Notes: generated by a model from the sequence alone, not told the origin. A DNA stretch of 64,000 bases from an uncultured Eubacteriales bacterium (GCA_949283575.1 CASDSU010000028.1:128849-192848); one strand, 5' to 3'. Positions 5,873 to 64,000 are shown, numbered from the stretch's first letter. Program-made: numbers and translations.

Positions 5873-5908
5873 CTTTTATAACTAACAAAAATGCAATAAA
5901 TTAAATAT

Positions 5909-5984
5909 TGGGCTGTAGCCAAGCGGTAAGGCACCAGACTTTGACTCTGGCATTTCGGCGGTTCGAATCCTCCCAGCCCAGCCA
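5909..5984 (+). tRNA. tRNA-Gln (anticodon TTG)
   Basis: Acceptor TGGGCTG/CAGCCCA, D-loop AGCGGTAA, anticodon stem CCAGA/TCTGG with loop CTTTGAC, T-loop GGTTCGAATCC, CCA encoded. Confidence 0.85.
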
Positions 5985-6042
5985 AATTTCATGATTTTTA
6001 AGAGAATTTTAGAAAACTTGTAAGAAACTTAAAAGTCATCAA

Positions 6043-13344: not shown

Positions 13345-13413
13345 TACTCGCTCACTACTCGCTTTTACTCGCTCATTACTTGTTTCTACTCGCTCATTAC
13401 TCGCTTATTACAT
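13345..13413. repeat. tandem array of about 6.5 copies of a 10-11 bp unit TACTCGCT(C/T)(A/T)(C/T), helical-phase periodicity
   Basis: tactcgctcac|tactcgcttt|tactcgctcat|tacttgtttc|tactcgctcat|tactcgcttat|tacattc. Unit is the reverse complement of the GTGCGAGTA/GAGCGAGTA motif found at 9848 and 12676. Confidence 0.75.
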
Positions 13414-31376: not shown

Positions 31377-31445
31377 TGGACAAAAGCCCCGTCCCCTTGT
31401 CCACAAAAAAGAAACGACCATCCACAGATAGTCGTTTCTTTTTTG
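31377..31445. terminator. two tandem hairpins between convergent genes
   Basis: TGGACAA-N13-TTGTCCA and GAAACGAC-N12-GTCGTTTC followed by T7. Confidence 0.55.
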
Positions 31446-31478
31446 TGTAATCAAACCTTAAACATACTCTTTCGAGCG

Positions 31479-33134: not shown

Positions 33135-33299
33135 GAGAATAACCTCCTTTTTCCGCATTATCTGCGAAACAGTCCAAAAGAAAAATTCCGTCTCTAAGAT
33201 ATTATCCTATTCGCCAAACTTTGACAAGCATAAAATAAAAAGTCCTGAAAATACTTGTTTACAGGGCTTTTATTTAAAGTTTATATGTAAACTGATTGG

Positions 33300-43224: not shown

Positions 43225-45330
43225 TTAAGTGGGAGAACCAAGATCGATGACGTCTTCAGTCTCAACAGACGGAGCGCCAAGATCAACGGTCTCTTCAACA
43301 ACAGGAGCAGGCTGCTCTTCTACCACAGGGGCAGAAGCTTCAACCTTTTCCTCAGCAGGAGCACGCTCCTCGCTGTGGTCGGAATCTTCCTGCACAGCAG
43401 GCTGTTCCTCCACAGCGGGCTCTTCGGTAGGAACACGCTCGCCATTATGGGCGGTCTCGTCTTCCACAGGAGCCTGCTCTTCGACGGTTTCCTCAACCAC
43501 GGGAGCGCCAAGGTCAATCACGTCCTCGGTAACAACCTCAGGCTGTTCTTCAGTAACCTCTTCGACCACAGGCTGCTCTTCGACGGTTTCCTCAACCACG
43601 GGAGCGCCAAGGTCAATCACGTCCTCGGTAACAACCTCAGGCTGTTCTTCGGTAACCTCTTCGACCACAGGCTGCTCTTCGACGGTTTCCTCAACCACGG
43701 GAGCGCCAAGGTCAATCACGTCTTCGGTAACAACCTCAGGCTGTTCTTCAGTAACTTCTTCGACCACAGGCTGCTCTTCGACGGTTTCCTCAACCACGGG
43801 AGCGCCAAGGTCAATCACGTCCTCGGTAACAACCTCAGGCTGCTCTTCAACCGGAGGCTGAGCCTCGGTTTCCACTTCGGGAGAACCGAGGTCAACAAGC
43901 TCTTCCTCATCCACGGGAGCCTGTTCTTCAACAGACTCAGGGATGCGCTCTTCGTTGTGCTCGGTATCCGGCTCAACGTCAGGCTGCTCTTCGGGCACGA
44001 TTTCCGGGGATCCAAGATCCACCATGTCGTCACTACCGGGGGCAGGCTGGTCGTCGGGGTTGCCAAGGTCAACGTCGTCGTCTTCCGGAGCGGGAGTACG
44101 CTCCGGATTGTGAGCGGGAGTCTGAGTAGCTTCCGGAGCCTGAGTCACTTCAGGAGTGCGCTCGGGTTCCGGAGTACGCTCGGGATTGTGAGCGGGAGTC
44201 TGAGTAGCTTCCGGAGTCTGAGTCACTTCAGGAGTGCGCTCGGGTTCCGGAGTGCGCACAGGGTTGTGACTGGTCTCAGGATCCGGAGTGCGCACAGGGT
44301 TGTGGCTGGTCTCCGGATCCGGAGTGGGAGTCGGAGTGGGAGTCGGAGTGGGAGTCGGAGTGGGAGTCGGAGTCGGAGTGGGAGTCGGAGTGGGAGTCGG
44401 AGTGGGAGTCGAAGTCGGGTCATCGCCAGAGGGAGGATTAGAAGGAACGTAATGACCACCACACCAGAACAGACCATACACCTTCACTTCTTCTCCATCT
44501 TCCGTCTCCTCCCAATAACAAGCCGCATCATCCAGAGCAGCCCACTCTTCGTCAGTCAGTTCTTCATGAATGATCATGCCGATGGCCTTAGCACCATTCA
44601 GCAGACCACCACACTGGTCACAAGTTTCCACACGAGTTTCCTCGTCAGGAATACGCTCGGTGTAGGGCAGATCCCACTCACCATTATCGTGACCAGGCGT
44701 GAGCGCAGCTTCTTCATCGGTGCAGCAGAAGACAGAAATCTTCTCGCCGTTAACCATGAAGTTGACCGGCTCGTTGGTGTGGTCGTGATTCAGAGTCCCC
44801 TCTTCTTCACAATTATTCATGAAGTTAACCGGGAACACTTCGTCACCCTTGTGAGGCACATTGTAAGCACCGAACTCGTTCACCCGCGCAAGGCGATTGA
44901 ACAGGAATCGGCACATAATCTCAGTGCCATCTTCGCGAACGATGATGTCGTTATCTTCCACAACTTCAGTTGCGTCATCAACGTTCTCTTCGGTCGCGCC
45001 AGAAGTGACGGTCTCTTCCTCATCGGAATCACCAGTCTCTTCGGGGGCAGGAGTTGCCGGAGCGGGAGTAACCGGAACATCCGTCACCTCAGGGGTGGCA
45101 GTAACTTCCGCACTCTGCTCGCCGGCAGTGTTCTTAGCAAACAAGTTGGAGAACCAGTTGGAAACATTGTTCCAGACATTGGTTGCCTTATCGGCCAGAT
45201 CAGTTACAACAGACTCGACGTTGCTCTTCGCAGCGTCATAACCATTGGTTCTGACATCGCCAACAAAACGCGCTCCAACGAGCACGAGGGCGATCACGAG
45301 AACCAGAAGCAGAGACTTCCAAATCTTCAT
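43225..45330 (-). CDS. membrane-anchored hyper-acidic repeat protein (Cys-containing domain, (TP)n linker, 4 x 33-aa E/V/P-rich repeats); 56-58% GC, foreign
   Basis: Start MKIWKSLLLVLVIALVLV with perfect RBS AAAGGAGAA. In-frame 99-bp tandem repeats and 12-nt (GGAGTGGGAGTC)n coding (TP)n. GC about 57% against about 30% background. Confidence 0.7.
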   Translation of the reverse strand: MKIWKSLLLVLVIALVLVGARFVGDVRTNGYDAAKSNVESVVTDLADKATNVWNNVSNWFSNLFAKNTAGEQSAEVTATPEVTDVPVTPAPATPAPEETGDSDEEETVTSGATEENVDDATEVVEDNDIIVREDGTEIMCRFLFNRLARVNEFGAYNVPHKGDEVFPVNFMNNCEEEGTLNHDHTNEPVNFMVNGEKISVFCCTDEEAALTPGHDNGEWDLPYTERIPDEETRVETCDQCGGLLNGAKAIGMIIHEELTDEEWAALDDAACYWEETEDGEEVKVYGLFWCGGHYVPSNPPSGDDPTSTPTPTPTPTPTPTPTPTPTPTPTPTPTPTPDPETSHNPVRTPDPETSHNPVRTPEPERTPEVTQTPEATQTPAHNPERTPEPERTPEVTQAPEATQTPAHNPERTPAPEDDDVDLGNPDDQPAPGSDDMVDLGSPEIVPEEQPDVEPDTEHNEERIPESVEEQAPVDEEELVDLGSPEVETEAQPPVEEQPEVVTEDVIDLGAPVVEETVEEQPVVEEVTEEQPEVVTEDVIDLGAPVVEETVEEQPVVEEVTEEQPEVVTEDVIDLGAPVVEETVEEQPVVEEVTEEQPEVVTEDVIDLGAPVVEETVEEQAPVEDETAHNGERVPTEEPAVEEQPAVQEDSDHSEERAPAEEKVEASAPVVEEQPAPVVEETVDLGAPSVETEDVIDLGSPT
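43483..43860. repeat. about 3.8 tandem copies of a 99-bp coding repeat
   Basis: Unit ACGGTTTCCTCAACCACGGGAGCGCCAAGGTCAATCACGTC.TCGGTAACAACCTCAGGCTGTTCTTC.GTAAC.TCTTCGACCACAGGCTGCTCTTCG recurs at 43483, 43582, 43681, 43780. Confidence 0.85.
44323..44412. repeat. microsatellite (GGAGTGGGAGTC)n encoding (TP)n
   Basis: Direct reading of the sequence. Confidence 0.85.
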
Positions 45331-45750
45331 GTTATTCTTCTCCTTTTCTTCATCTTCATAGGGGACCAGGGACATTGGGTGTCTTGCGACGTTCAACTTT
45401 CAGTGATTTCTCACCTCCTTGTACGTCACGGTCGGTCGTTACGGTGCTCTGCAGTTACTATATGTCAATCGTTATGTCTTCTATCCGTCGATAAAAAACA
45501 AACGAGAATTTTCCAGGGACCATCTCGATGAAACATAAACAGGCATTCAATTACAGATACATTTTACCACAAAACTGTCAATTTTTCAATAGTTTTACAT
45601 AATAAGTAACATAAGCCATACTTATTATCTTTTGTAAAAATATGTAAATTTTTTCTTTTAGATATTCCCCCCATTTTTATCTTCAATATACTTATTTTGT
45701 TTGATTTTTACAGATACTATTTATATAATGTTTCTAGGAGGTTGATTAAC

Positions 45751-50187: not shown

Positions 50188-50231
50188 AAAAAAACACAAC
50201 TAAAAATATACTTTTTAGTTGTGTTTTTTTT
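50188..50231. terminator. bidirectional terminator
   Basis: AAAAAAACACAACTAAAAA-N5-TTTTTAGTTGTGTTTTTTT. Confidence 0.6.
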
Positions 50232-51279
50232 ATTCCTTAATAACACATTCTAACTTTATATCCACCATGTTTTGAAACATTGTATAGAAGATATCTTTCA
50301 TAATTGCAGTTATCATAGTTATCACACTCGAAAAGCTTTTATATTTGCATGTAACTTGATATAAATTTTCTTCAAGCAAAGTTACTTTAATATTATTGTT
50401 ATAAAGTTCATTCAATATCATAAGTTGCAAATCGTCATTGTATAATTCTCTTATAATATTTTCTGGCTTTCTTCCAAACTTAACCGCAATTCTTCCAAGT
50501 GGCGAAATTAAATATGCACGCTCTTCAAATTTCTTAATATTTTCATCTATTACTTCTTCAATATGTGTATTCAAATCAATATATGAAAAACGAATTTTAC
50601 AAAGACCTGTTTCTTCAAACGAAGTTGCCTCAAAATACGAGTTTTCATTTATCAGCTTACTCACACTAGACAAGTTGAATTTTTCGACAAATTCGGCCAA
50701 ATATATGCCAAATTTAAGTACAAAATTACCAATCAAAATACAATTGTACTCATTATCGTCCTCTAACAATTCTTCATCTGAATACTCTTTTATATATTCA
50801 CTTATAGTTTTAAATGGATCGATATCATTAGTAAGCAATTTTATATAAGTTGGTATATCATAAACGTTTCTTAAATCAATAGATTTAAGATTACACCACC
50901 TTACAAATGAAAAAGAATTAAGCGCATATTTTACAGGGAATTCTTTTGAAATAAACGAACTAATAAGATTTGTATTAACCTTATTTAGTCTTACAGCATA
51001 TGTAACTTTATTCGACGTCGTTACATAAAGCCTAGCAAAAGATTCATTTACATAAATGCTAACCGCATCTTGCTTTTCTAAATCTTCTACCCTACTTATG
51101 AAATCATCATCGTCATTTACATATATAATTTCATTATCTGTACTAAGTGTAAACTTTGCTTTTATAAAAGCTTTTAAAAACATTTCAATTTCATCAGGAT
51201 TAGAAATTTCGTTCAACTCTTTTTCTAATGTTTTTGTTCCACTCAATTTACCAGATAAGAAAGCCTCCTTATTATTCAA
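50230..51279 (-). CDS. hypothetical soluble protein, last gene of the giant-membrane-protein operon
   Basis: RBS AGGAGGC; 44-nt gap to the upstream gene; no TM, no known motif. Confidence 0.5.
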   Translation of the reverse strand: MNNKEAFLSGKLSGTKTLEKELNEISNPDEIEMFLKAFIKAKFTLSTDNEIIYVNDDDDFISRVEDLEKQDAVSIYVNESFARLYVTTSNKVTYAVRLNKVNTNLISSFISKEFPVKYALNSFSFVRWCNLKSIDLRNVYDIPTYIKLLTNDIDPFKTISEYIKEYSDEELLEDDNEYNCILIGNFVLKFGIYLAEFVEKFNLSSVSKLINENSYFEATSFEETGLCKIRFSYIDLNTHIEEVIDENIKKFEERAYLISPLGRIAVKFGRKPENIIRELYNDDLQLMILNELYNNNIKVTLLEENLYQVTCKYKSFSSVITMITAIMKDIFYTMFQNMVDIKLECVIKE

Positions 51280-51323
51280 AAAAACTCACCTCATATAAAA
51301 TATACGCTATATATCTTTATTTA

Positions 51324-54300
51324 TTATTCATCATAATCGCCTGGTTGATCTCCCATAAAGTGTCTTTGATATGTGCTCATTGCATCAGTATATTCACTAG
51401 AGAAATGACCAGAAGATGTTGTCTTTCCAAATCCAGCAAGATTTTTAACCACATTCATTTTTGCATTTCTTCTTTCTTCTAGTATTTGCTCTCTTGTTTG
51501 ACCATTTAGGAATCTTTGTTCACTCATACCACCTTCTGTAATATCAACATGGTTTTGCGCTAATATATCTGCAGCAATATCTCTTACGTATTGTCTTTCA
51601 GTTAGATTTGATTGGCGTCTTGCTTCTGACATGCTATCAATTATCTGTTGTTTTTTCGCTTCACGAGTAGCATCATCATGTTCAAACATTAATGCAACTA
51701 ATTCGTGTCCTGATAGTTCATCATCAAACACACCATCTCTCAAATCTGATTCATATGTACCCAAAATTGTCCTAACTCTATTTCTATTGTAATGACCAGA
51801 ACCTTCTTCTTTTACTTTATGAGCCATCATATGTCTTAACAAATCAGCGTCAACATCAAGTGTTTCTGCCATTTGATGCGCAACCTCGCTAGATCCAGCG
51901 TTTGATTTTATTTTACTTGTAGCATCTAAATAATCTTCTGCAGTAAACAAACCTGAATTTCTATTTGCGATTACAAATAAACTACGTGCAACTTCTTTTT
52001 CTTCCGCAGTTACCTCTTCACCGTCTTCATGAAAACTTGCTGCCCAAGCATCTGCATCAGCACGAATTTGTCTTTTTCTTTCTCTATCAGCATCATCTAA
52101 TGCATCTGTTCTAGATCTATATGTAAAGCTATTCATTACACTTTCAAGTTCTGATAATCCTGCTTCAACTTCATTTCTAGAACTTTCAAGTGGATCATCA
52201 TATCTGCTAGCACCTGTAAATGCCAATCCCGTAAGCAACATGTTTTTATATCTATCTTGCTCTATTTCCGACATTCCTTCTAATGTATATCCAAGTCTCA
52301 TTTGAATATGTCTGTCTATGCTTACTGTATCAAATGTACCATTTGCAACCATATGCGCAACTTCATTTCCAATATTTTGCATATCATTCATCTGATCAGC
52401 TGTTAATTTTAAGTCTTGTAACAATTCATTATTTGGATTTTCAGCTCTTGCTTGATCAACAATTTGTCTTGCTCTTGCAAGTTCTTCTGCACTTCTCGAG
52501 TTTGGATTATTTAAATCTGCAATTGCATTTGCAAGTCGCAAATTACTAGCTTTCATTGCACGTTTTTCTTCATCACTTATACTCATTGCATCAATTGCAT
52601 CCATCGAACTTTGTGCATGATCTAATCTTAATCCTGCATTTGGTGCTTCTACTGGTCTAGCCATTGCATCAAACACTCCCAATTTAGCATCCGCTACCTT
52701 TACATTCGCACTTGCATTTTTTACTTTATTGTATACACTATCTTTACCTACGAATGGCTTAGCAACAGTCTTCACCGCTTTTACTGCAATTGCAGTTTTT
52801 GCGATTTGACCTGCTGTATCTTTAAGTGAACTTGATGCACCTGAAGGTGACTCTTGAGAGAATATCTTCTTAATAATTTCTTCACCAGTAAATAAGAATG
52901 TAACACCGGTAATTACTAAGATATAATCAAATCCTGTTGCTGAGCTATATGTAGAATACACTGTTCCACATACAAAAACATATACTATTGCATGGAATGA
53001 TTGTATCAATACATTAAGCATAAATTCTTTATTCCATTTATTAAACGCTTGAGATTTTCCATCTGCAATACGATCCACCGCATAGAATAAAGTAACTATT
53101 GGGAATATCGCAATTAAAAAACCTACCATAAATAAACGTTTATAATAATGTACTATCAGTGTTATAAGCTGCCATGTAAGTATCAAATAAGCAAGCGCCA
53201 TTGCAAATCTTTTTCCATTTTGTGCATCGTTTGCAATCTGTGACATATAATCACTTCCATCTGAATTAAATGGTTGTGTATCAAAATTAACATCTATTAA
53301 AGATTTTGTTTCATCAGTAATTTCTGTAGGAGGCAATGTTGACGGTGTTATTGAGTATTGATTACCCACTCCCACAAATCTATTAGCCTCAATTACATCA
53401 ACAAATGTATTATTCAAAAGTATTGTATATTTCATAACATATGGATATAAGAATAATATCATTACACCTATAACCCAATACAAAAATAACGTCTTATATT
53501 GTGAAAGACTTTCACCTGTTGAAGCAAGCATTATTCTTATGCCCATATATAGTAGCATAATCATATATCCAACAATCGCAATTTTTTGGAAGAAACTATA
53601 AGTCTTGTTTATTGTCTCTGAAAGACCACCGTTTCCATTTCCACTACTTCCCCATATAAGCTCTGAATAATTATCGCGTTTTAAATCATCAAAGAAGTCT
53701 ACGATTACAGGCGAATAATTATTAAACACTATATCATCAATTGTTACACGATAGCCAACTGCCAGTGCAATTAACTTGTTTATTGCATTCGCTATTGCGT
53801 TTAACAGCATCGCTATCATTTTTTCAAGTGGATCTAACCCCACAGCTTTATCATCGACAGGTTGTGTCGCTGGACGAAGAGCTTGTAACGGTTGATATAA
53901 TGGGGTACCATCTGTTCTAGTTGGTGTCACTAATGTTGGTGCCGTACCAGATTCTCTTTCTCCATCTAATATTTCTTGATCTATGTTTGGTCTGTATTCA
54001 ATTTTATCAGCATATCTAACCGATAAAGAATCATTTCCACTACCCAAGCTTGCCTCAATATCATCTGCTTCACTTCCATTCAAAGTAGGAAATGTGAATG
54101 TATATGAAATACCTTCTCCATCTACACCAGCAGATGTAACTTCTGTAAGTTGGCCTTCATGAAGTACACCATTATAAAGTACCTTATATGTAAGTTCTGT
54201 TGAATACCAATAATCTGCATTACCTGGCATTTGAGTTGCAACCATATTATTACCAATATCCATTTTGGCTTGTGTTGGCATATCGCCTTCTCTATTAATA

Positions 54301-54575
54301 TGAGTAATTGTAATAGCTGCTCCACCGCTCGCTAGGCCAGTAACTCTCGTCTCTATAGAATCATCATATTGACCTTCTGTAGTATTTACCTCTCGCTCTA
54401 AATCAGCTGAATACCACACTGGATTCTGAGCAGGAATGTTGTCAATATTATTTAATAACAAATTTACATTCACAGAAATCGGTTCATTATCAGCTAATAC
54501 AACCTGCGTAGGCAATATGCAATTTAGTAACATCACTACCAATATTAACTTAAACATAAAACGTTTGAATTTCAT
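51324..54575 (-). CDS. giant paralogous membrane protein C (1083 aa): signal peptide, about 330-aa ectodomain, conserved 5-6 TM core, about 500-aa charged tail
   Basis: Signal peptide MKFKRFMFKLILVVMLLNCILPTQVVLA; core motif IVHYYKRLFMVGFLIAIFPIVTLFYAVDRIADGKSQAFNKWNKEFMLNVLIQSFHAIVYV shared with the two upstream genes; RBS GAAGGGAGGTAGG. Confidence 0.7.
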   Translation of the reverse strand: MKFKRFMFKLILVVMLLNCILPTQVVLADNEPISVNVNLLLNNIDNIPAQNPVWYSADLEREVNTTEGQYDDSIETRVTGLASGGAAITITHINREGDMPTQAKMDIGNNMVATQMPGNADYWYSTELTYKVLYNGVLHEGQLTEVTSAGVDGEGISYTFTFPTLNGSEADDIEASLGSGNDSLSVRYADKIEYRPNIDQEILDGERESGTAPTLVTPTRTDGTPLYQPLQALRPATQPVDDKAVGLDPLEKMIAMLLNAIANAINKLIALAVGYRVTIDDIVFNNYSPVIVDFFDDLKRDNYSELIWGSSGNGNGGLSETINKTYSFFQKIAIVGYMIMLLYMGIRIMLASTGESLSQYKTLFLYWVIGVMILFLYPYVMKYTILLNNTFVDVIEANRFVGVGNQYSITPSTLPPTEITDETKSLIDVNFDTQPFNSDGSDYMSQIANDAQNGKRFAMALAYLILTWQLITLIVHYYKRLFMVGFLIAIFPIVTLFYAVDRIADGKSQAFNKWNKEFMLNVLIQSFHAIVYVFVCGTVYSTYSSATGFDYILVITGVTFLFTGEEIIKKIFSQESPSGASSSLKDTAGQIAKTAIAVKAVKTVAKPFVGKDSVYNKVKNASANVKVADAKLGVFDAMARPVEAPNAGLRLDHAQSSMDAIDAMSISDEEKRAMKASNLRLANAIADLNNPNSRSAEELARARQIVDQARAENPNNELLQDLKLTADQMNDMQNIGNEVAHMVANGTFDTVSIDRHIQMRLGYTLEGMSEIEQDRYKNMLLTGLAFTGASRYDDPLESSRNEVEAGLSELESVMNSFTYRSRTDALDDADRERKRQIRADADAWAASFHEDGEEVTAEEKEVARSLFVIANRNSGLFTAEDYLDATSKIKSNAGSSEVAHQMAETLDVDADLLRHMMAHKVKEEGSGHYNRNRVRTILGTYESDLRDGVFDDELSGHELVALMFEHDDATREAKKQQIIDSMSEARRQSNLTERQYVRDIAADILAQNHVDITEGGMSEQRFLNGQTREQILEERRNAKMNVVKNLAGFGKTTSSGHFSSEYTDAMSTYQRHFMGDQPGDYDE

Positions 54576-54596
54576 ATTGCCTACCTCCCTTCTAGT

Positions 54597-57500
54597 TTAA
54601 TTTCCACCATTTATTTTGTTCAACCTTTCACTAAGTGTTTTACCACTTCCGGCACTTGGCACTGAAGTTTTATCTCTTAATGCTGACTTTCTTAAATCTA
54701 TTGCTTGTCCTCTAGTAGATGGGGCAGATGAAGATGAACCAGAACCTTTTCCTGAAGCCGATTGACGTGGTTTTAAAGATTCTGCAAATTTATCTTTTAC
54801 CGTACCCACAGTAGAAGCAACATCGTTTACTCTATTTGTAACAAATTTTGATGTACTACTATATGCTTTATCTGCTAACGAATATCCTCCTAATGCTGCT
54901 GTAGCACTAGATACTGTTAGTAAGTCACCTGTTTTTCCACCGGCAACACCGGCAGCCATCATACCAACTCCAACATCAAGCGGCATTCTTACCGACATAT
55001 CCATAGCTGCTCCACCCAAATTTTTAGCCATTTCAACCAAATCGTCTTTAATAGCTTTTTTGCTTGCTTCATATCCGCTTTTAGCTGCAGCTATTTGTTC
55101 TTCTCTTTGTCTTTGTCTAAACGCAGCTTCAAGTGTACTTTGAAGAGCAGATTCTTCAGAAGCTGTTACAATACCATTCGTAGCCATTTGCTCTACAGTC
55201 TGATATGATCTTGCAGTTCTAGCAATTGGAGTATATCCTTCTTGTAAATCACCTGGCTCATATCTAAGCATACTTAGTAATATATCATCACTTGGAAGAG
55301 ACTTAACATGTCTAATAGATGAATCCATAATTCTACCTTTATTTGGATCACTATCTGCAACCAGTGATGGATCATTCAATACTTGAATTCTAACATTTGA
55401 TTCATAATCATCCAAATTATATTTCAACTGACCAACAATCTTCTCCATGGCTTCATGCGCAGGAGAACCATGTGGTATCATCAACATTATTGCACGGATA
55501 TTATCAATATGCGATACTACATCAGATGCTGTATATTCACCTAAGTGAGACTGATTGATTGCTGTAACAGAATATGCTAATTGCTCTAACTTAATATCAT
55601 CAACTGGACTTATATCATCTTGACGTGTAGCTTTAGCTTGTTCAGCCATTTTTCTAGCTTCACGAACTTCTCTTTCTGTATTTAATGTGATTACATTTGA
55701 TTCAGTTGTTAAAACTCTTTGAGTTGAAGGATTATCTCTTACAAATACTACTGTTTCAACATCCTTACTATGTGTAGAACCAGATGAAACTGGAGTCGGC
55801 GGAACGCTCGTATCCTTCGGTGGCGTATATAATCCATTAATTACGATTTTTTCTTTATCCAAATCTTTATTTCTTGCATATTGCATAATTTCTTCAGGAA
55901 GCGAAATTGTTTTTGTAGGATTGTTTGGATCTTGAACTCTTCCAAACGTGTTCTTCACATTAGTCTTTGCATCACTAATAGCTTCAGAAATTCTAGTTGG
56001 AACATTTCTAATTTCAGTTGGAACCATAGTTGCCATTGAATATGCTTTTGCACCTATTTCAACAATTCCCACACCTGCATCTTTTATAAAGTCTGCCGTT
56101 CTTCCTGGTGCAGAAGCAATTCTACCCAAGCTATCAGAGGTTCTTTCTGCCATTCTTGAAAACATACCCTGATGAGAATGAATTTTTTCATCCCTTAAGA
56201 TGCCTTGCATAATTTCTCTTTCTTTAGCGTAAGAATCTCTTAATTCATTTCTTTCTACAGCCCTTTGTTGTTGCTCTCTAATAACATTTGCCACTCTTGT
56301 ATTAGCAGTAGCCGCATTAGCCTCAGCTTCAGCTCTCTTTCTAGCTTTTTTATCAGCCATTCTTCTAATCTTGTTATCATATTGTGTATCTGAAACCAAG
56401 CTAATAGATGTATCAATTGCAGTCTTCCTTGCATCGTTTCTCTCAAGTCTATCATTTACTCTTTGAGCTCTTCTTTCTGCAACCTTTTCATCTCTTCTAG
56501 CTCTCTCATAACTACTTGAGAAATCTCTACTTATTTCTTTCTCTAATCTTGCATTTCTCATCGTTTGAACAGGAGAAACTATCTTTACACCTTGTCTTCT
56601 CAAATCAGCTCTTGAAGCCTTTATATCCTTATATACAAGTTGCTCACGTTTACGTGCATCTGCAAGCGACTTTATTGCTTTTTCCTCTCTTCTCTTTGCA
56701 CGTTCCATTGCTGCAGCATCGCTACCAGCCCTACTCATTGCAGCTCGTGCACTTCTTAAATCTTCTTCTGCAGATTTGATTTCTTGTTTTATGCCTCGAG
56801 TACCATTATATGTATTACCATATAACGCTTCATGAGCTCTTTTATTTGTAGCTTTTAAATTATCTTTAACTTTCTTTCTAGTCTTTGCTTCACTGCGCCA
56901 TGAATCATATCTATCAATTGTGCTTTCTGCTTTCTTCATAACGCTAGGACCTTTAATTACAGCACCTCTGCTTCTTAAGAAGTCGTTTGCCTTTTGACGT
57001 TCAGCTTTAGCTGTTGAATAATCGCCCTTTGTACCTACAGTTACTCTATCTTTAATCATTTGACTTGCTGTTCTTATTTCAGTACCTATAATTGTGCGAT
57101 AAGCTGCTCTTTCTTCCTTCTTAGCCATACGAACAGTAGGTCTATTATAAAATTTCTCTGCTCTACTAGCTCTTACAAGTTGTACACCATTATCTCTTAA
57201 AGTTTTTCTAATTGCATTTGAATTATCTAAAATTCTTCTTTCTTGTTCAGATAAATTAGCAGGATTCTTTTTTCTTAACTCTTTTAATTTCTTAACCGCA
57301 TATTTTTGAGAACCTTTATCCAATATTTTTTGTGCTCTTGTTTGTTTTCTAGAATGGTTAGGATCATATCCTCTAAATGATGTTTTTCTAGATTTAGCTA
57401 CTTGCTCTTCTAGCGCTTTTGCGCTCTTTTCATACCTTTCAGCTAATGCCCTATCGCCTCTAGCACGAGCATTATCAGCATCTCTTCTCATAACTAAAGC

Positions 57501-60197
57501 GTCTTTTGCAGCTTGAACAGAAATTCTGTTTCTATCTCTATTTAGCATACGTTGAGCTGAAGTCATACGAACTTTCTTAGGTCTTTCTCCAGGACGATTA
57601 CCAAATAGTTTTGAACTAACAGTACTTCTACCATCAATAAAGTTTTCAAGTTGTTTTAATCTTCTTTCTTGTCCTGCACTTAAATAACCTTTCTCTCTAA
57701 GTGCTCTAGCCTCTTTAACAGCTCTTTTAGCTTCTTTATTTTGTTTAAACGTAGCTGTTACATCATGATACGTCATCTTAACTTGATTTGCTTTGCCTTT
57801 TATTTGACCTTTTACATTGTTAATATATGCCATTCTGTTAAGCGTTCTTTGAGTCTTACCAACACCTCTAAAGTAAATTCCTCGTTTAGCATAGTTAGCT
57901 CTTTGTTGTCTTAGTCTGCTTATATTTCCGCCAGCACCTTGCAACTCAGCAATAGTTGCTTGAATGTCTCTATATCTTGCAGAATTTGTTTGTCCATTCT
58001 TTGAAAGTAGTCTCATTTCCTTTTGAAGTCTATTTAAATCGCGTAAATCTCTCATTGCACTCTTTTCATAAGAACGTAACGATTTTCCTGCTTGACGTTT
58101 TTCTTTCATCATTCTGTATTTGCCTTTTATTGTATAACCAGCGCCAACTACTGAAGCACCAGCACCAACCATCTTTTGTCTAAATGTTTTCTTTGGTTGA
58201 GGTGCATTTTTAGCTCGTGCTGCATTCATTCTTGCTACAGATTCTGGAGTTCTAAATGTACCAGAATATCTGTTACCAGATTTCTTAGTTCCATCTACAC
58301 CTCCGGCTTTACCATATGTTTGATTATATCTTCTGCCTTTTAAATTATATATTACTGATGTTGTTTGGTCTGGTTTCTTGAATTTTATAGCCCCAGCCAT
58401 TTTTATCTTATTAAGATTTCTAGGATTATTTAGCACCGCCCTTGCCATTGCGGCTGCCATACCTGTTCCTTTCATTTTTTCTAACAAGATTTCAATTTTC
58501 TCATTAAACTCTATAGGTTGTAATCCACCAACCATCATTGCATTTGCAGCAGCTCTAACTTGCATCATTGCATATAATTCATCTAGTTCTCCTTCATGAC
58601 CCCTAAATTGTTCAGCAAGTGCATTTAAAGCCTGTTCTTCTTCTTCACCTTCTGGCATATTATGTGCAGCAATAAGATTATCTAGCGCCGCATTTCTTTC
58701 CTCTTCACTAGCATTTTGATCAAGCGCCACCATAGCCGAATCATATAATGTTCGTGGTGCATTTAAATCAGCCATTTGATGTTGTGTTTCTTGGGCTTCT
58801 ATAGTTTGATCTAACTGTGCATTTGATTCATCAAGTCTTGACATTTGTGCTTGTCTAAGATGACTTTGTAAATTTCCAGCACCTTGTGCTAAATGTCCAA
58901 CATGACTATCTTGTCCAAACATTTTTCCAACTGTATTTCTAGCACTTCCAGCTAATTTAACAGCCGCATGTGTTTGAAGGGCTGTAGCTGCAACACTTTT
59001 TACAGTATCGCCACCACCACCATTCATATGGAATATAGCTCTAAGCATATCGTCACCTTTAGTTATAAATGTAACAATTATAACAATTAAAAACCAATGC
59101 TTATTTGGATTACCTATATTTAATATTAAAGCCATACATATTACATATACAATTGCATGGAATGATTGTATAAAAATATTTAATAAAAATTCTTTGCACC
59201 AATTTCCAAATGCTTGTGATCTTCCATCAGCTAATTTATCAATTGCATATGAAATCATTACAAGTGGGAATACCGCAATCAAGAAAATTGTCATCAATAA
59301 TCTTTTGAAATAAATGATTAATAAGCTAAGTAGCTGTTTAACCATAATTGTCCAACATATACCGAAAACTAACCAACCTTGTTCTTCTGCCATACGATAC
59401 ATCATAGACATATAGTCTGTACCACTATTTAAAGCTCCTTGTGCAGAATCCATTGCATCTTGCATACGATCCATGCCAAGCCCTTCTTGTGGAAGAACAC
59501 CAGGTTGAGTAAACATGTCTCCATATGCTCCTATTGCATCTTTATTGGTAGCAATAAAATCTACAAATGCATTATTTATAACTATCGTATATTTTATAAC
59601 ATATGGGAAAAAGAATAATATCACAATACCTTGAACCCAATATAAAAGAAAATCTTTATATTTTGCATTCTTCTCTGTACCAGCATTTAATAATATTCTA
59701 ATTCCTATATATACAAGCATCATCATATATGCAACAATTGCGAGCTTTGTAAAGAAACTGAAAAATTCATTTAACCTATCATCAATTCCCATTTCTTGAA
59801 CATATGTATTCATTTTATAAGTTCTTCCTGATGGAACAGGCATATCGCTAAATATGTTTAAACTTGTTTTATTGTACCTATTGAAGAATAGTGATTCTAT
59901 TGTTAATGGGACTGCGTTACCGGCAGCATCCTCAGCGCTTCCCGCAGCCATACCTATAAGACCATACACGCCTAATGTTCCAATAAGTAAAAATGCTGTT
60001 AATGCTTTTTCCCACAAGCTACTAGATTCTTGAGTTAGAATATCATCATCAACATATCCTCCTCCTCCAGTCGCATATACTACATTTTGAGTAGGTAATA
60101 TGTTTACCATCGTTAACGCAAAAACTATTAACATTGCTAAAAATTTTGCATGCCATTTTTTCTTCATATTACCTACCTCCTTTCTACTAATTTTCAT
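54597..60197 (-). CDS. giant paralogous membrane protein B (1866 aa): signal peptide, short ectodomain, conserved TM core, about 1400-aa K/R/E/A/Q-rich predicted coiled-coil tail with Gly-rich C-terminus
   Basis: Core motif IIYFKRLLMTIFLIAVFPLVMISYAIDKLADGRSQAFGNWCKEFLLNIFIQSFHAIVYV; start overlaps the upstream stop (TAATG). Confidence 0.7.
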   Translation of the reverse strand: MKISRKEVGNMKKKWHAKFLAMLIVFALTMVNILPTQNVVYATGGGGYVDDDILTQESSSLWEKALTAFLLIGTLGVYGLIGMAAGSAEDAAGNAVPLTIESLFFNRYNKTSLNIFSDMPVPSGRTYKMNTYVQEMGIDDRLNEFFSFFTKLAIVAYMMMLVYIGIRILLNAGTEKNAKYKDFLLYWVQGIVILFFFPYVIKYTIVINNAFVDFIATNKDAIGAYGDMFTQPGVLPQEGLGMDRMQDAMDSAQGALNSGTDYMSMMYRMAEEQGWLVFGICWTIMVKQLLSLLIIYFKRLLMTIFLIAVFPLVMISYAIDKLADGRSQAFGNWCKEFLLNIFIQSFHAIVYVICMALILNIGNPNKHWFLIVIIVTFITKGDDMLRAIFHMNGGGGDTVKSVAATALQTHAAVKLAGSARNTVGKMFGQDSHVGHLAQGAGNLQSHLRQAQMSRLDESNAQLDQTIEAQETQHQMADLNAPRTLYDSAMVALDQNASEEERNAALDNLIAAHNMPEGEEEEQALNALAEQFRGHEGELDELYAMMQVRAAANAMMVGGLQPIEFNEKIEILLEKMKGTGMAAAMARAVLNNPRNLNKIKMAGAIKFKKPDQTTSVIYNLKGRRYNQTYGKAGGVDGTKKSGNRYSGTFRTPESVARMNAARAKNAPQPKKTFRQKMVGAGASVVGAGYTIKGKYRMMKEKRQAGKSLRSYEKSAMRDLRDLNRLQKEMRLLSKNGQTNSARYRDIQATIAELQGAGGNISRLRQQRANYAKRGIYFRGVGKTQRTLNRMAYINNVKGQIKGKANQVKMTYHDVTATFKQNKEAKRAVKEARALREKGYLSAGQERRLKQLENFIDGRSTVSSKLFGNRPGERPKKVRMTSAQRMLNRDRNRISVQAAKDALVMRRDADNARARGDRALAERYEKSAKALEEQVAKSRKTSFRGYDPNHSRKQTRAQKILDKGSQKYAVKKLKELRKKNPANLSEQERRILDNSNAIRKTLRDNGVQLVRASRAEKFYNRPTVRMAKKEERAAYRTIIGTEIRTASQMIKDRVTVGTKGDYSTAKAERQKANDFLRSRGAVIKGPSVMKKAESTIDRYDSWRSEAKTRKKVKDNLKATNKRAHEALYGNTYNGTRGIKQEIKSAEEDLRSARAAMSRAGSDAAAMERAKRREEKAIKSLADARKREQLVYKDIKASRADLRRQGVKIVSPVQTMRNARLEKEISRDFSSSYERARRDEKVAERRAQRVNDRLERNDARKTAIDTSISLVSDTQYDNKIRRMADKKARKRAEAEANAATANTRVANVIREQQQRAVERNELRDSYAKEREIMQGILRDEKIHSHQGMFSRMAERTSDSLGRIASAPGRTADFIKDAGVGIVEIGAKAYSMATMVPTEIRNVPTRISEAISDAKTNVKNTFGRVQDPNNPTKTISLPEEIMQYARNKDLDKEKIVINGLYTPPKDTSVPPTPVSSGSTHSKDVETVVFVRDNPSTQRVLTTESNVITLNTEREVREARKMAEQAKATRQDDISPVDDIKLEQLAYSVTAINQSHLGEYTASDVVSHIDNIRAIMLMIPHGSPAHEAMEKIVGQLKYNLDDYESNVRIQVLNDPSLVADSDPNKGRIMDSSIRHVKSLPSDDILLSMLRYEPGDLQEGYTPIARTARSYQTVEQMATNGIVTASEESALQSTLEAAFRQRQREEQIAAAKSGYEASKKAIKDDLVEMAKNLGGAAMDMSVRMPLDVGVGMMAAGVAGGKTGDLLTVSSATAALGGYSLADKAYSSTSKFVTNRVNDVASTVGTVKDKFAESLKPRQSASGKGSGSSSSAPSTRGQAIDLRKSALRDKTSVPSAGSGKTLSERLNKINGGN

Positions 60198-63100
60198 TAA
60201 CCTTGATCTTGATTATTATAAAATATATCTTGATTTGCTGTAACTTGTCGTCTACTTTCTAAGTTTTGTCTATATTTATCTTGAAGTCTTGATTCGTTTT
60301 TTCTTGCTCTTGCTTCTGCTCTTGCTTCTCCAGCAGTAGGAGCTACTCTTCCATTTCCATAGTCTGCTGTTTGAGCTTCTTGTCTTGCTTGATCAGCGGC
60401 TCTATTGCTTGAAGTTTGAGCAGAACCTCTATTTTGACCATTATTATTTGCATATCTATTTCTATCTTGTCCTGTAGGAGCTTTTGAACCTGATGAGCTT
60501 GACGCCGCAGAATCCTTTTTTACACCTGTAACTTTTCTGTTCTTACCAGATATGATATTTCCAACTGCCATACCTGCTGCAAAATCTCCAATATCTCCTC
60601 CACCTGCAAGTCCAGTAGTTATTATACTATACACAGCCGCAACATTTCTAAGAGGTTGTACTATTTTTTCAGCCCTTCTTCTTCTATCTCTCGCACGTTG
60701 TGATGCTTCTCTCTTTCTTCTACGTTTTTCTTCCTCTTGCTCATGTTTTTCGCGACTTTGTTGTAAACGAGCTTCAGCATCATCATGATTTCCTCCTCTT
60801 GCCATATCCTTTTTAATTTTATTTTGCTCTTTTTTCCACTTTAAGTCTGACTTTTCATCTTGTTTTTTCTCTTTCTGATGTGCTTTTTCATCTTTAGCAT
60901 CATATTTTGAATCAATTCCTTTTGTACCACTAATAACTTTAGAAGCAGCATATGCTGTAAGTGCATATTTACCACCTTTAACAGCGCTATCTTTTAGATT
61001 TGATACCGTAGTACTTTCTTTCATGCCAATAATAGATTTAACTACACCTTCCATAGGGAATATTGCCATAACCGCAAACAAGAATAATAACCAGTTATCA
61101 GAATCTGCCTCATATATCTTCAAACCAGTTTCAACTAACATTACATATAAGAATGCGTGCACAGATTGAATAAATACATTCACCAAATATTCCTTAATCC
61201 ATGTTTTAAACGTTTGACTTTTCTCAATTCCCATTAATTTTTCAATTGCATACATCATTACAACAAGTGGGAATATCGTTATCAAAACTCCGACTACAAC
61301 TAAACGTTTGTAATATAAGAACAATAACAATACTAATTGATACATCATGATGTACCACACTGCAACAAACACTAATCTATTCGTCGATCCAGCTCTACTT
61401 CTCATTGTTCCTTCAAGGTCTATTCCTCTAGAAGATAAGTCAATGGCTTTTTCCACATCTTCCATAGCACCTTGTAATTCTATGTAATCATAATATGCTA
61501 TCGCATAATCCAATAATTGAGCTTTTACCGTACTATCACGCAAGAAAAGAAATGCAAGTATATTTCCCTCAATCTCAACATTTGTTGCCTGCCTAGCTAC
61601 GATATCTGTAATTTGTTGTTCTGTAAGTGTACCTGACTGTTCTAATTCAATTTCAATTTCTCTTATCGCCATATCCAAAGGTCTTTTATACATGCTACTA
61701 TCTATTACCCAAATCTCATCTACTCCAATAATCCAATATAAAAATGTTCCTTTCTTATTAGCAACTGCTCTCTGAGCCTCTCGCCAAGTTTGCTCTGATT
61801 CTATATATTTATCTTCAATTATGTCTCGCATCTCTATTAACTGATCTTTTATTGATTCTGTTGTTGAGTCTTCACCAAACTGATATATCTGTGGCGAAAT
61901 ACCAAACCTTTCAATGAAATCGGTATTATATACTGAGAAAATAGAATATTCACTGCTATCTCTAAATATTTTTACTAAAATATCATTCATCATAACCGCA
62001 TATTTCATAAAATATGGTCCAAAGAACAACAGTGCAACCGCAAGGACCCATCCAACAAGCATGTTTTGAATTTTATTTTGTTTTGCACCACCACTAAGAA
62101 ACATCGTTTTTATACCCATTGCTATTAAAACAACTACTAATATCATTTGTGTCCATGCGCTAAAAGCTTTATACCAACCATTTACAATTAATTGGAATAA
62201 ATCTACATATGCACCACCATCGCCTGTTTTCCAAAAATCCAAAATGGTATTGGCATATTGGTTGAAAATTAATGAATCTAATGTTAAATTCTTTCCTCCA
62301 ACCATGTTAATTACACCTCTAAATAAGTCTCCAATAGAAAGTGCAACCTCCGCAATAATTTTTTCTATAGTAGTATTTTCATTATTATCTAAAATCTCTG
62401 ATGTAAGTCCTCTAAATTCATAAACAACCTCAGCTCCATTTGATCCAAACGTATAAGAATCTCCACCAGTAGCTTTTGACATCGTTTGAGGTCCTGTAAC
62501 CTGATATCTCAACCATTTAATATCGTCAATAACTTTAAAGTCTATTTTTGCCTTTGAACTTTGTTGAAGAGTTGAAAACGCAATCAACTCATTTTCTTTT
62601 AACCCTGCTGACGCAAAAACATAAACTTGTGGGTGTGATGCAGCATTTGCAGCAACAGTTCCTGTTGAAATAGTCGAGTTACCTAAATCTGATGTAAGCT
62701 GATATTTAAAACCTTCACCCCAGAGATAAACAAGTCCTAGCAAATATGTTCCTCTTTCATATTTAAAATTCATGTAAGAAACAATCTTATACAAAGGAGG
62801 CGTGAACCCCATTGAAGTCGATACATCATTATATATGGCTCCCGGTTGTACATAATTTATTCCTTCACTCTTTTTCGGTCCAGTAACAGAATAGAATCCT
62901 AAAGTATCAGTAGTTGATAATCTCTTGAAAACTACTTTCTTATCTTCCTCAAATATAGTAATCATATATTTTCCGTATTTCTGACTCGCATCAGAATTTT
63001 TAAATGTATAGAAAAAAGAATCTTTAAATTTACCTGCTGTAGCAAAGCTAATAATTATTTCATCATATTTCATATCTAAGAACAAAGGCTTTTCTTTACT

Positions 63101-63271
63101 TCCTTCATATGATGTTGATGTACCGTCAAACAAAAATTTATTTGACGAAGAATTATATGTTATAGTAAGAACTTCTTTGCTAATAGCAGCATTAGAAATC
63201 GATGGTATAAATACAGATACCAGTATTAAAATTATAAAAGAAGATAAAATCTTATTTTTAAGTTTATTCAT
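60197..63271 (-). CDS. giant paralogous membrane protein A (1024 aa): signal peptide, about 340-aa beta-rich ectodomain, conserved TM core, R/K/E-rich plus Gly-rich tail
   Basis: Signal peptide MNKLKNKILSSFIILILVSVFIPSISNA; core motif FLYYKRLVVVGVLITIFPLVVMMYAIEKLMGIEKSQTFKTWIKEYLVNVFIQSVHAFLYV; RBS AGGAAAGGAG. Confidence 0.7.
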   Translation of the reverse strand: MNKLKNKILSSFIILILVSVFIPSISNAAISKEVLTITYNSSSNKFLFDGTSTSYEGSKEKPLFLDMKYDEIIISFATAGKFKDSFFYTFKNSDASQKYGKYMITIFEEDKKVVFKRLSTTDTLGFYSVTGPKKSEGINYVQPGAIYNDVSTSMGFTPPLYKIVSYMNFKYERGTYLLGLVYLWGEGFKYQLTSDLGNSTISTGTVAANAASHPQVYVFASAGLKENELIAFSTLQQSSKAKIDFKVIDDIKWLRYQVTGPQTMSKATGGDSYTFGSNGAEVVYEFRGLTSEILDNNENTTIEKIIAEVALSIGDLFRGVINMVGGKNLTLDSLIFNQYANTILDFWKTGDGGAYVDLFQLIVNGWYKAFSAWTQMILVVVLIAMGIKTMFLSGGAKQNKIQNMLVGWVLAVALLFFGPYFMKYAVMMNDILVKIFRDSSEYSIFSVYNTDFIERFGISPQIYQFGEDSTTESIKDQLIEMRDIIEDKYIESEQTWREAQRAVANKKGTFLYWIIGVDEIWVIDSSMYKRPLDMAIREIEIELEQSGTLTEQQITDIVARQATNVEIEGNILAFLFLRDSTVKAQLLDYAIAYYDYIELQGAMEDVEKAIDLSSRGIDLEGTMRSRAGSTNRLVFVAVWYIMMYQLVLLLFLYYKRLVVVGVLITIFPLVVMMYAIEKLMGIEKSQTFKTWIKEYLVNVFIQSVHAFLYVMLVETGLKIYEADSDNWLLFLFAVMAIFPMEGVVKSIIGMKESTTVSNLKDSAVKGGKYALTAYAASKVISGTKGIDSKYDAKDEKAHQKEKKQDEKSDLKWKKEQNKIKKDMARGGNHDDAEARLQQSREKHEQEEEKRRRKREASQRARDRRRRAEKIVQPLRNVAAVYSIITTGLAGGGDIGDFAAGMAVGNIISGKNRKVTGVKKDSAASSSSGSKAPTGQDRNRYANNNGQNRGSAQTSSNRAADQARQEAQTADYGNGRVAPTAGEARAEARARKNESRLQDKYRQNLESRRQVTANQDIFYNNQDQG

Positions 63272-63305
63272 ACCATCAACTCCTTTCCTAAAAAATATTA
63301 TTATT

Positions 63306-64000
63306 TTAATTTCCTGTATTGTCCATATTCTCCTCTATATAGTTCCAATAAGCAACTTCACCTCTAGCCTTACCTTTTGTAGCAGTAGTTCTAGCCATTT
63401 CTGCAAGTGCTTTTCTATATATTTCTTGCATTGTCTCACCATGTTTACCAACAATTTCGTTCGGATCAACATTTGGCGGCATCATTGCACCAGGAGGTGC
63501 ATTAAGAGTAAGGGCATTATCCATTTCACCTTGCTCAATTCGTTTTGCAAGTTTCTCACCATGTACTTTTTGTTCTACTTTATTAGCTACAGCGGTGACA
63601 GGTGCAGCTACTGTAGATCCAATCATTCCACCAGACACACCATCTGATAAAGCATTCTTAAACATGCTTCCATCTGCAGTGTCGCCTTTAGATAAACCAT
63701 ATGTAATACCTGCGGTTGTACCAAGCGCTTTTCCAGCAAAATTAGCAACTTTGCTTCCAATTCCACGACCAAGTCGTCTCGCCATTGCACTTTGAATTAC
63801 TGTATCTTGTGCAGCACCTTCGTTATAGCCAGCAGGTTCTACTCCTGCAGGATCATTTCCAGTATAATTACCTTGATTTCTTGAAGATGATTCTCCATCA
63901 CTTCCTTGAGCTCCACCTCCTGTTTGCGGTTCTTGTGGAACTGATGAACCATTTCCACCAATACTATTTCTTTGTGCTTGTCTTTCAGAAGCTCCTTTAA
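63306..64000 (-). CDS. C-terminal part of a further upstream gene (open to the window edge) with Gly-rich tail resembling the tails of proteins A and B
   Basis: Reading frame stays open from 63785 to 64000 on the minus strand (…KGASERQAQRNSIGGNGSS…); GxxxG-rich segment GKALGTTAGITYGLSKG…GGMIGSTVAAPV. Confidence 0.55.
   Translation of the reverse strand, partial: KGASERQAQRNSIGGNGSSVPQEPQTGGGAQGSDGESSSRNQGNYTGNDPAGVEPAGYNEGAAQDTVIQSAMARRLGRGIGSKVANFAGKALGTTAGITYGLSKGDTADGSMFKNALSDGVSGGMIGSTVAAPVTAVANKVEQKVHGEKLAKRIEQGEMDNALTLNAPPGAMMPPNVDPNEIVGKHGETMQEIYRKALAEMARTTATKGKARGEVAYWNYIEENMDNTGN

Follow-up and report, generated by a model that had tools for sequence, protein, structure and literature searches.

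Giant VirB6-like proteins in a putative, chromosomally fixed type IV secretion locus of uncultured gut Clostridia

The window analysed here is a stretch of 64,000 nt from an uncultured Eubacteriales bacterium (GCA_949283575.1 CASDSU010000028.1:128849-192848). Its minus strand carries, at positions 50188-64000, an array of giant genes whose products are probably extended VirB6 subunits of a machine resembling a type IV secretion system (T4SS). An earlier reading of the window, referred to below as the original prediction, had described three complete, co-oriented giant open reading frames (ORFs) and a fourth one open to the edge, and our ORF calls match these positions, all of them on the minus strand. 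The array comprises the following features, with protein lengths in amino acids (aa):

63306 to 64000, minus strand: paralog E, C-terminal 230 codons; the frame is open to the window edge and only the glycine-rich conserved tail end lies inside the window
60197 to 63271, minus strand: paralog A, 1024 aa; signal peptide, ectodomain of ~270 aa, split VirB6-like core, basic tail of ~260 aa
60992 to 62374, minus strand: VirB6-like core of A, residues ~300-760, from alignments A1 and A2
54597 to 60167, minus strand: paralog B, 1856 aa from an ATG preceded by a ribosome-binding site (1866 aa as longest ORF, 54597-60197)
58998 to 60035, minus strand: VirB6-like core of B, residues ~55-400, from alignments and the core profile
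56298 to 58397, minus strand: basic segment of the B tail, residues 601-1300, net charge +99
51324 to 54575, minus strand: paralog C, 1083 aa; signal peptide, ectodomain of ~220 aa, VirB6-like core, acidic tail of ~520 aa
52776 to 53858, minus strand: VirB6-like core of C, residues 240-600, the segment used for the AlphaFold2 (AF2) model
50230 to 51279, minus strand: D349, a soluble protein of 349 aa, last gene of the operon
50188 to 50230, no strand: hairpin with a 19-bp stem and T/A runs on both sides, a shared bidirectional terminator of the operon and the convergent ugtP-like gene

GGAGG-like ribosome-binding sites are located upstream of A, C and D349. In B a GGAGG precedes the ATG at 60167, ten codons inside the longest ORF, and the metagenome gene caller starts the gene at the same position. 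Because both signals lie ten codons further in, the 1-nt "TAATG" overlap of A and B, from which translational coupling had been proposed, is probably not the true start of B. We searched the gaps between the operon genes on the minus strand, including the gap between C and D349, for terminator-like sites and found none, and D349 appears to be part of the transcription unit of C. The gene series thus reaches position 50230 as originally proposed, but its last member is not a paralog of the others. Downstream of the array, Pfam and NCBIfam scans identified an MGDG-synthase/UgtP-type glycosyltransferase, the germination protein YpeB, an HD protein and a kinase-like protein. The GC and composition profile of the window exhibits no step at the array, and Rfam and tRNA scans of the window gave nothing relevant within it.

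A three-way alignment of A, B and C reproduced the shared core and recovered the motif blocks given in the original prediction, AIVxYMxMLxYMGIRI and LYWVxG..LF..PYVMKYT as well as the third block, YYKRL...FLIAIFP.V..YA.D...DGKSQAF..W.KEFL.N..IQSFHA.VYV. The core profile, built from alignment A2 with three window segments and eight metagenome homologs, yielded scores far beyond chance for A (2.9e-114), B (1.1e-138), C (1.2e-158) and full-length E (1.9e-105). The remaining architecture is also as predicted. Signal-peptide-like N-termini with AxA-type sites are present in A, B, C and E, the ectodomains vary in length (~270 aa in A, ~30 aa in B and ~220 aa in C), and the hydropathy profiles contain, after the signal peptide, five strong transmembrane (TM) helices and a weak sixth one. 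In A the core is interrupted by an insertion of ~190 aa between TM2 and TM3, and B consists of a signal peptide, a very short ectodomain, the VirB6-like core and a tail of ~1450 aa. Acidic loops follow the ectodomain and TM2, YYKR is located after TM3 and a K-rich sequence after the last helix; judged by hydropathy and charge only, the weak sixth helix lets the C-terminus fall on either side of the membrane. The charge count confirmed that the tails are highly charged, that of A being basic, that of C acidic, and residues 601-1300 of B having a net charge of +99. Searches of the PDB with the tail sequences of B and C found nothing, and the basic segment of B has no Pfam match either.

Two further observations concern this architecture. 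The signal peptides of many family members (B and C; P0001, P0003, P0004 and P0007) have a conserved c-region, (I/T)LP(T/A)xxV(x)A, which directly adjoins the site of predicted cleavage, and such conservation is unusual in a signal peptide. A is present as two ORFs in several metagenome-assembled genomes (MAGs; L001 4561-7444, L007 1292-4229 and L008 1251-5016), with the break point inside the large insertion that separates TM2 from TM3, and hence the pilin-like hairpin described below from the remaining core.

An exact-sequence look-up of A retrieved a 141-kb metagenome contig, L017. Being 100% identical to window positions 50197-64000 over 13,804 bp, it shows how the locus continues past base 64000. 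In the direction of transcription it encodes tRNA-Met, tRNA-Gly, four pilins, a PrgI/VirB3-like protein, the N-terminal part of VirB4, the VirB4 ATPase, F, E, A, B, C and D349. The claim of at least four paralogs thus holds as to paralogy, and the number of members is now five: E is an 828-aa protein in full length (L017 7480-9966), and the small F lies outside the window. Three of the four small two-helix proteins encoded upstream reach the Pfam cut-off for TrbC/VirB2 or T4SS_pilin, and a 128-aa protein with two TM helices has a weak match to PrgI (VirB3-like). VirB4 is encoded by two genes, L017 2694-4007 (437 aa, membrane-anchored N-terminal part) and 4038-6014 (658 aa, ATPase part), and this split is kept in every related locus examined. 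The gene pair is located ~3.3-6.6 kb past window base 64000, in agreement with the original statement that no ATPase is visible in the window. The 437-aa protein aligns only to positions 48-233 of VirB4_plasma, the Mycoplasma VirB4 model. The 658-aa protein matches conju_CD1110 (1.9e-60), VirB4_plasma (7.4e-53) and TraC-F-type (2e-39) as well as P-loop_TraG, AAA_10 and DUF87. The best curated models, conju_CD1110 and VirB4_plasma, are mating-pair formation (MPF)-FATA-like, with scores under their cut-offs, and there is a weak sub-threshold match to NCBIfam CedD (3.8e-5). Extending the locus beyond the window edge, as had been suggested, thus revealed a VirB4 ATPase, but no relaxase, type IV coupling protein (T4CP) or integrase between the tRNA genes and ugtP. 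A VirB5 partner, outer-membrane T4SS components and a TrsD-like second ATPase were not recognised at the cluster of the window lineage.

F, the smallest paralog, is represented by ORFs of 187 and 241 aa at L017 6142-6705 and 6578/6719-7444. The frameshift lies in the loop of the pilin-like hairpin, and the site contains no homopolymer. The two-ORF state recurs in three independent assemblies and in related species (L017, L018, L019, L104 and L106), and F is intact, with 434-435 aa, in L015, L001 and L020. Split F could be a pseudogene, a functional split or the result of a programmed frameshift.

A Foldseek search with the AF2 model of the C core placed TrwI chains at ranks 1-5, with a probability of up to 0.96, a weak E value (0.14) and TM-scores of 0.35-0.43. 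VirB6/TrwI of R388 and DotA of the Legionella Dot/Icm system were the best and second-best structural matches. The model is of moderate confidence and has a predicted VirB6 fold, and hydropathy and charge distribution of the core are compatible with a VirB6 topology in which the N-terminus is outside and at least five TM helices and a large extracytoplasmic loop after TM2 are present. The families Mbov_0396 (NF045889) and MMCAP2_0566 (NF045848) match the cores below threshold, with E values from 4.5e-8 (C, Mbov_0396) to 1e-3, MMCAP2_0566 reaching 1.9e-7; against NCBIfam cut-offs of 70/90 bits the best scores are 32.9 for C, 30.7 for B and 27 for E. The cores thus appear to be distant relatives, and not members, of these families. 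The Pfam model T4SS_pilin, with a cut-off of 26.6 bits, matches TM1-2 of the core with 24.7 bits in B and 21.3 bits in C (E value 2.5e-5), so that B has sub-threshold matches to T4SS_pilin, MMCAP2_0566 and Mbov_0396, and C to Mbov_0396 and T4SS_pilin. The Mycoplasma trio is weakly matched in step, the pilins matching Mbov_0395 (NF045849), the cores Mbov_0396 and VirB4 Mbov_0397 (NF045975), which is consistent with our assignment of the components and serves as a cross-check on it. The Mycoplasma integrated conjugative element (ICE) is the only curated family group with consistent weak matches to all three component types.

The core is also related to the pilins encoded next to it. We aligned the core alignment to 17 pilins of the cluster with hhalign, resulting in a probability of 90.5% and an E value of 1.4e-6 over 60 columns, with TM1-loop-TM2 of the core (YMGIRIMLASTGE..YK) paired with the pilin hairpin (YIGIKYMMASANEKADLK). 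Further, the core hidden Markov model (HMM) weakly matches small pilins. According to the hhalign result, the VirB6-like core contains a pilin-like module, its first TM hairpin being homologous to the neighbouring pilins. Genes for the PrgI-like protein, split VirB4 and the pilins are located directly upstream of the array, also in all related loci examined. The sub-threshold matches to Mycoplasma ICE families and T4SS_pilin, together with this pilin-PrgI-VirB4 context, support the original suggestion of VirB6/TrbL-type subunits of a conjugation-like apparatus, and the alternative of a surface-sensing protein family is not needed.

We then turn to the distribution of the locus. A scan with one genome per GTDB species gave 15 loci, all in MAGs of uncultured Clostridia/Eubacteriales from animal and human guts. 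The order E-A-B-C-D349-ugtP-ypeB-HD-APH is retained in most of them, with ugtP diverging to 73-77% and ypeB to 57-72% identity in the same loci, and A orthologs occupy the same position in L003-L015. Synteny of the locus, flanked by housekeeping genes, extends to at least 14 MAG species of Clostridia. In L104 the upstream flank contains FtsE and FtsX together with a PcsB-like peptidase, a methyltransferase and a PMT-type glycosyltransferase; in L037 it contains a radical-SAM activase, YqeY and M16 peptidases, and in L025 and L022 PcrA/UvrD, a sulfatase-family enzyme, GT8 enzymes and an acyltransferase. Neither relaxase nor T4CP nor integrase was found within 10 kb upstream in these four loci or downstream in the window. 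The patchy distribution and variable insertion of conjugative elements are not observed, the flank ugtP-ypeB-HD-APH being kept in most of the 15 loci, and the locus is chromosomally fixed and vertically inherited between housekeeping genes. By the terms of the original prediction the array would count as known if the region were simply the T4SS of an ICE family already described; this is not the case, as the locus is chromosomal and syntenic across species and no relaxase, T4CP or integrase is adjacent to it. The reading as a prophage or defence island was rejected as well, on the grounds of absent PHROGs matches and the synteny with housekeeping genes.

Beyond these genomes, a metagenome scan with the VirB4 ATPase gave at least 566 confirmed stretches, with record names pointing mostly to human or animal gut; the best 80 of the at least 566 are 70-88% identical. 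All loci examined share a module of a pilin array (2-7 genes), PrgI, VirB4N, VirB4C and VirB6-like genes, the latter directly after VirB4 and in one, three or five copies. An exhaustive HMM search yielded 4208 representatives of the core family at 50% identity, 2478 of them below 1e-30; a word-indexed protein search with the C core returned nine unnamed fragments only. Among related genomes, in which the number of pilin genes ranges from two to seven, L054 has seven divergent VirB2-like ones (2589-5857). The single-VirB6 relatives encode a Phage_lysozyme2 + NlpC/P60 protein of ~912 aa (L074 15627-18365), a typical Gram-positive VirB1-like hydrolase, and similar ORFs are found in L042 and L059 (~959 aa) and in L077 (~1108 aa).

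Core identity is 37-46% between the same array positions of different genomes and 26-34% between different positions, be it within or between genomes. Because identity at the same position exceeds that across positions, the five paralogs represent ancient, separately kept orthogroups in a fixed order, which have not undergone concerted evolution and are older than the sampled species. Recent duplication or gene conversion was rejected since paralog identity within a genome equals that between genomes, both being lower than ortholog identity. Across increasingly distant loci the identity to L017 is 99, 88, 84, 80, 75 and 70% for the VirB4 ATPase, and declines from 85 to ~30% for the pilins and from 64 to 26% for the VirB6-like proteins. 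Within A, B and C, orthologs are 52-62% identical in the core, 20-31% in the ectodomains (with up to 46% gaps) and 24-37% in the tails. In A the N-terminal half of the core is 44% and the C-terminal half 62% identical, and ectodomain, insert and tail are 27-31% identical; in B the core reaches 52.5%, and residues 601-1300 are the least conserved (24% identity, 38% gaps). The tail end of E is 46-50% identical in orthologs. The ATPase is thus under much stronger constraint than pilins, ectodomains and tails, a pattern expected for a conserved motor driving fast-diversifying parts that are surface-exposed or contact partners.

For D349, Pfam and NCBIfam scans and a PDB profile search gave no family at the sequence level. 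The AF2 model, based on a 36-sequence alignment (predicted local distance difference test score 88.9, predicted TM-score 0.85), corresponds to a family-A DNA polymerase (PolA)-like fold with a 3'-5' exonuclease-like domain and part of the polymerase domain. D349 is 60-91% identical in genomes of the window lineage. Relative to the VirB6-like array it remains distal in either of two orientations, co-directional in the window lineage and convergent in more distant Clostridia MAGs; in the latter it also neighbours truA, lexA and genes for ribosomal proteins. That it stays at this end in both orientations suggests, without proving it, a functional link to the machine.

Elsewhere in the window, a single gene at 43225-45396 (minus strand) accounts both for a local peak in GC content (48%) and for the long ORFs found on either strand; its product is membrane-anchored, contains tandem acidic repeats (VEETVEEQPVVEEVTEEQPEVVTEDVIDLGAP) in addition to a (PT)n run, and has no Pfam family. 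A Schlafen/AlbA_2-HATPase_c_4-wHTH protein (13408-14871), a tyrosine recombinase (Phage_integrase; 16363-17778) and a 1298-aa protein with three AAA domains (18697-22593) may constitute a small mobile or defence island, apparently unrelated to the T4SS locus 30 kb away. Two large ORFs, at 1070-3775 (minus strand, 901 aa) and 31443-33197 (plus strand, 584 aa), remained without a match in Pfam at E<=0.001.

Taken together, we regard it as probable that the giant genes encode extended VirB6 subunits of a chromosomally fixed, vertically inherited, T4SS-like pilus or translocation machine without an adjacent relaxase. The five paralogs would together build its central membrane platform. In the R388 and Dot/Icm machines whose structures are solved, VirB6/DotA is a pentamer at the centre and is proposed to act as pilus-assembly platform and protochannel (PMC12857230); together with the presence of five non-redundant paralogs this suggests a hetero-pentamer with one copy of each. 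Polymerisation of the VirB2-like pilins, driven by VirB4, would start from the pilin-like hairpins embedded in the cores. Conjugative pili are five-start helical assemblies. The variable ectodomains would span the thick wall, and the K/R-rich or acidic tails would, following the positive-inside rule, reside in the cytoplasm and dock substrates, the +99 segment of B possibly binding nucleic acid. Agrobacterium VirB6 has an N-out/C-in topology, and we infer that the tails are cytoplasmic. As T4CP and relaxase are not adjacent, the B tail has its +99 segment and a PolA-fold protein ends the operon, we further infer that import or exchange of DNA between cells, or another non-plasmid transfer in the manner of the Ced/Ted and Patescibacteria systems, is likelier than classical self-transfer of a mobile element. 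DNA import or exchange would be the leading, albeit unproven, substrate candidate. A more far-reaching scheme, which we put forward as speculative, combines a hetero-pentameric base, whose built-in hairpins would seed a five-start pilus, with tails and a PolA-fold protein handling the imported or exchanged DNA; the machine would then be the first VirB2-pilin T4SS in Bacillota and maybe a relative or the source of the Patescibacteria T4SS.

Several observations weigh against this interpretation. No family reaches its cut-off in Pfam and NCBIfam scans of A, B, C, D349 and E. For the core this bears out the original statement that it could not be placed in a known family. The TrbL/VirB6 profile comparison recommended at the time gave no match, the TrbL (PF04610)/VirB6 models being absent from the Pfam scan of A, B, C and E at E<=0.1, and PrgH does not reach its threshold on the core either. 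Likewise, the PDB profile search with the core alignment found no T4SS proteins, just a chance match to GlyRS. Neither a VirB1-like hydrolase nor a VirB8-like protein was recognised in the cluster of the window lineage, and genes for a T4CP or relaxase could lie in other parts of the genome. As to the hetero-pentamer, related clades with one or three VirB6-like genes exist, and F is split into two ORFs in the window genome and its near relatives. Owing to the weak sixth hydrophobic helix the tails could also come to lie outside the cell, and D349 may have no relation to the machine, being a housekeeping gene that happens to end at the same terminator.

The same genes can be read in other ways. 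All recognisable parts are of the conjugation type, the best VirB4 models being conju_CD1110 and the VirB4 of the Mycoplasma ICE, which would fit the mating-pair-formation module of an ICE that is either still mobile, with T4CP, relaxase and integrase at a distance, or recently decayed, the giants acting as its VirB6 and adhesin components in ordinary conjugation. The VirB1-like lysozyme/NlpC-P60 protein of the single-VirB6 relatives, the tyrosine-recombinase gene at 16363-17778 and the two tRNA genes directly upstream of the first pilin gene point in the same direction, tRNA genes being frequent targets of ICEs. However, gene order and housekeeping flanks are constant across species whose ugtP and ypeB are down to 57-77% identical, none of the loci inspected has a relaxase, T4CP or integrase gene in the 10 kb to either side, the VirB4 ATPase surpasses the housekeeping genes of the flanks in conservation, and a GC step at the cluster is absent. 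The integrase gene is 33 kb off with ypeB, ugtP and many other housekeeping genes in between, and was rejected as an element boundary. We therefore consider an ICE module quite improbable.

Two alternatives retain the giants but change their role. If they were mainly surface adhesins or receptors, with functional ectodomains, a core that is a mere anchor and a loose tie to the T4SS genes, it would be understandable that the ectodomains evolve fastest and have most indels, as this fits a surface facing a host or partner, and surface adhesins are known to serve Gram-positive T4SSs (PMC12102498). Yet B, whose ectodomain after the signal peptide comprises only ~30 residues, nevertheless retains the core and has the longest tail of all, conservation is highest in the core, which has a predicted VirB6 fold, its five to six conserved helices with invariant polar motifs would be superfluous for an anchor, and the VirB6-like genes always directly follow VirB4 in the loci examined, all of which renders a pure adhesin role highly improbable. 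Alternatively, the same machine might serve contact-dependent exchange of effectors, toxins or nutrients, a role that has been proposed for the essential Patescibacteria T4SS, the tails being secreted or cleaved cargo. The component set resembles that of the Patescibacteria T4SS with its VirB2 array, PrgI, VirB4, VirB6, chromosomal location and lack of a relaxase (PMC12102498; PMC12857230), and the two to seven divergent pilin copies resemble arrays that have been read as host-range or antigenic variation. In Ehrlichia, Bao et al. reportedly found in 2009 that VirB6 paralogs occur as processed fragments. However, Pfam, NCBIfam and PHROGs scans recognised no effector-like, toxin or immunity genes in the operon, its sole soluble protein has a predicted DNA-polymerase/exonuclease fold, and the +99 segment of B fits binding of nucleic acid better than secretion, so that we judge such a purpose rather unlikely.

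With extended VirB6 subunits as the preferred reading, a pilin-bearing T4SS would be widespread in genuine Clostridia, as reflected by the at least 566 metagenome stretches and 4208 core-family representatives, and would constitute a conserved, probably important, uncharacterised cell-surface machine of common gut bacteria. It would contain the most extreme VirB6 expansion outside Rickettsiales, one that is chromosomally fixed, and provide a Bacillota counterpart for testing the origin of the Patescibacteria system. The series of one, three and five VirB6 copies is a natural experiment to be set against the pentameric VirB6/DotA platform, and the pilin-like hairpin in the VirB6-like core bears on the nucleation of pili.

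We finally compared the locus with known systems. Like VirB6/TrwI and DotA, the giants have a helical, polytopic core, in which a large loop predicted to be extracytoplasmic follows TM2, and an operon position beside VirB3/VirB4. VirB6 has been proposed as a docking platform for the VirB2 pilin, and the role of "extended VirB6" proteins is stated as unknown (PMC12857230). Unlike VirB6/TrwI and DotA, the proteins described here are not members of a curated model, have a cleavable signal peptide, a pilin-like first TM hairpin and a tail of 260-1450 aa, with ectodomains that reach ~300 aa, and occur in a spore-forming Clostridia lineage (ypeB in the window). The closest parallel to the array is the rvh T4SS of Rickettsia with five adjacent VirB6 genes, RvhB6a-e, of 674-1154 aa, which are chromosomal, vertically inherited and conserved only in the VirB6 core, the flanking hydrophilic regions being divergent (PMC2653234). 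Five ancient VirB6 orthogroups in a fixed order are found in both systems, but rvh belongs to Alphaproteobacteria with an outer-membrane complex and retains VirD4, VirB8-11 and the function of an effector translocator. The array analysed here is an expansion independent of rvh, with one- and three-copy VirB6 relatives among related metagenomic, mostly gut, clusters.

In the Mycoplasma ICE the genes for pilin (CDS15 Mbov_0395), TM protein (CDS16 Mbov_0396) and VirB4 (CDS17 Mbov_0397) are adjacent as well, and CDS16 is regarded as a VirB6-like component (PMC12857230). Its TM proteins, however, have ~300 aa without ectodomain or tail and are encoded in single copy on a mobile ICE with a T4CP (CDS5), and the scores of our proteins are well under the cut-offs (32.9 versus 70 bits). 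In the archaeal Ced/Ted systems, CedA/TedA are VirB6-like, CedA1/TedC VirB2-like pilins and CedB/TedB VirB4-like, and the systems import DNA between cells (PMC9905601; PMC12102498). They resemble our locus in their minimal, chromosomal gene set for one or more pilins, a VirB6-like polytopic protein and an ATPase of the VirB4 type, with neither relaxase nor T4CP. They belong to another domain of life with a different envelope, and apart from the weak VirB4-CedD match no homology was found, their other components not having been compared; the parallel would be a functional one.

The T4SS of Patescibacteria (candidate phyla radiation, CPR) is chromosomal and relaxase-less, has arrays of 2-11 VirB2 genes and is essential in Saccharibacteria (PMC12102498). 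The same components are found here, namely a chromosomal, relaxase-less set of a monoderm (MPF-FATA-like) VirB4, PrgI/VirB3, VirB6 and a tandem VirB2-like array (2-7 genes here versus 2-11 there); unlike in Patescibacteria, the host is a spore-former and not an ultrasmall epibiont, VirB4 is split, and VirB6 is multiplied and greatly extended. Gram-positive T4SS classes are said to lack virB2 homologues, with Patescibacteria as the sole exception (PMC12857230; PMC12102498), and in the literature searched we found only work on Patescibacteria, archaea, Mycoplasma and Rickettsia and no published description of this Clostridia system. In summary, a T4SS as such, extended VirB6 arrays (Rickettsiales) and chromosomal, relaxase-less T4SSs with VirB2 arrays (Patescibacteria) are known, whereas a genuine Clostridia host with sporulation and germination genes, VirB2-type pilin arrays, a split VirB4 and a five-fold VirB6 of up to 1866 aa are new compared to the systems in the papers searched.

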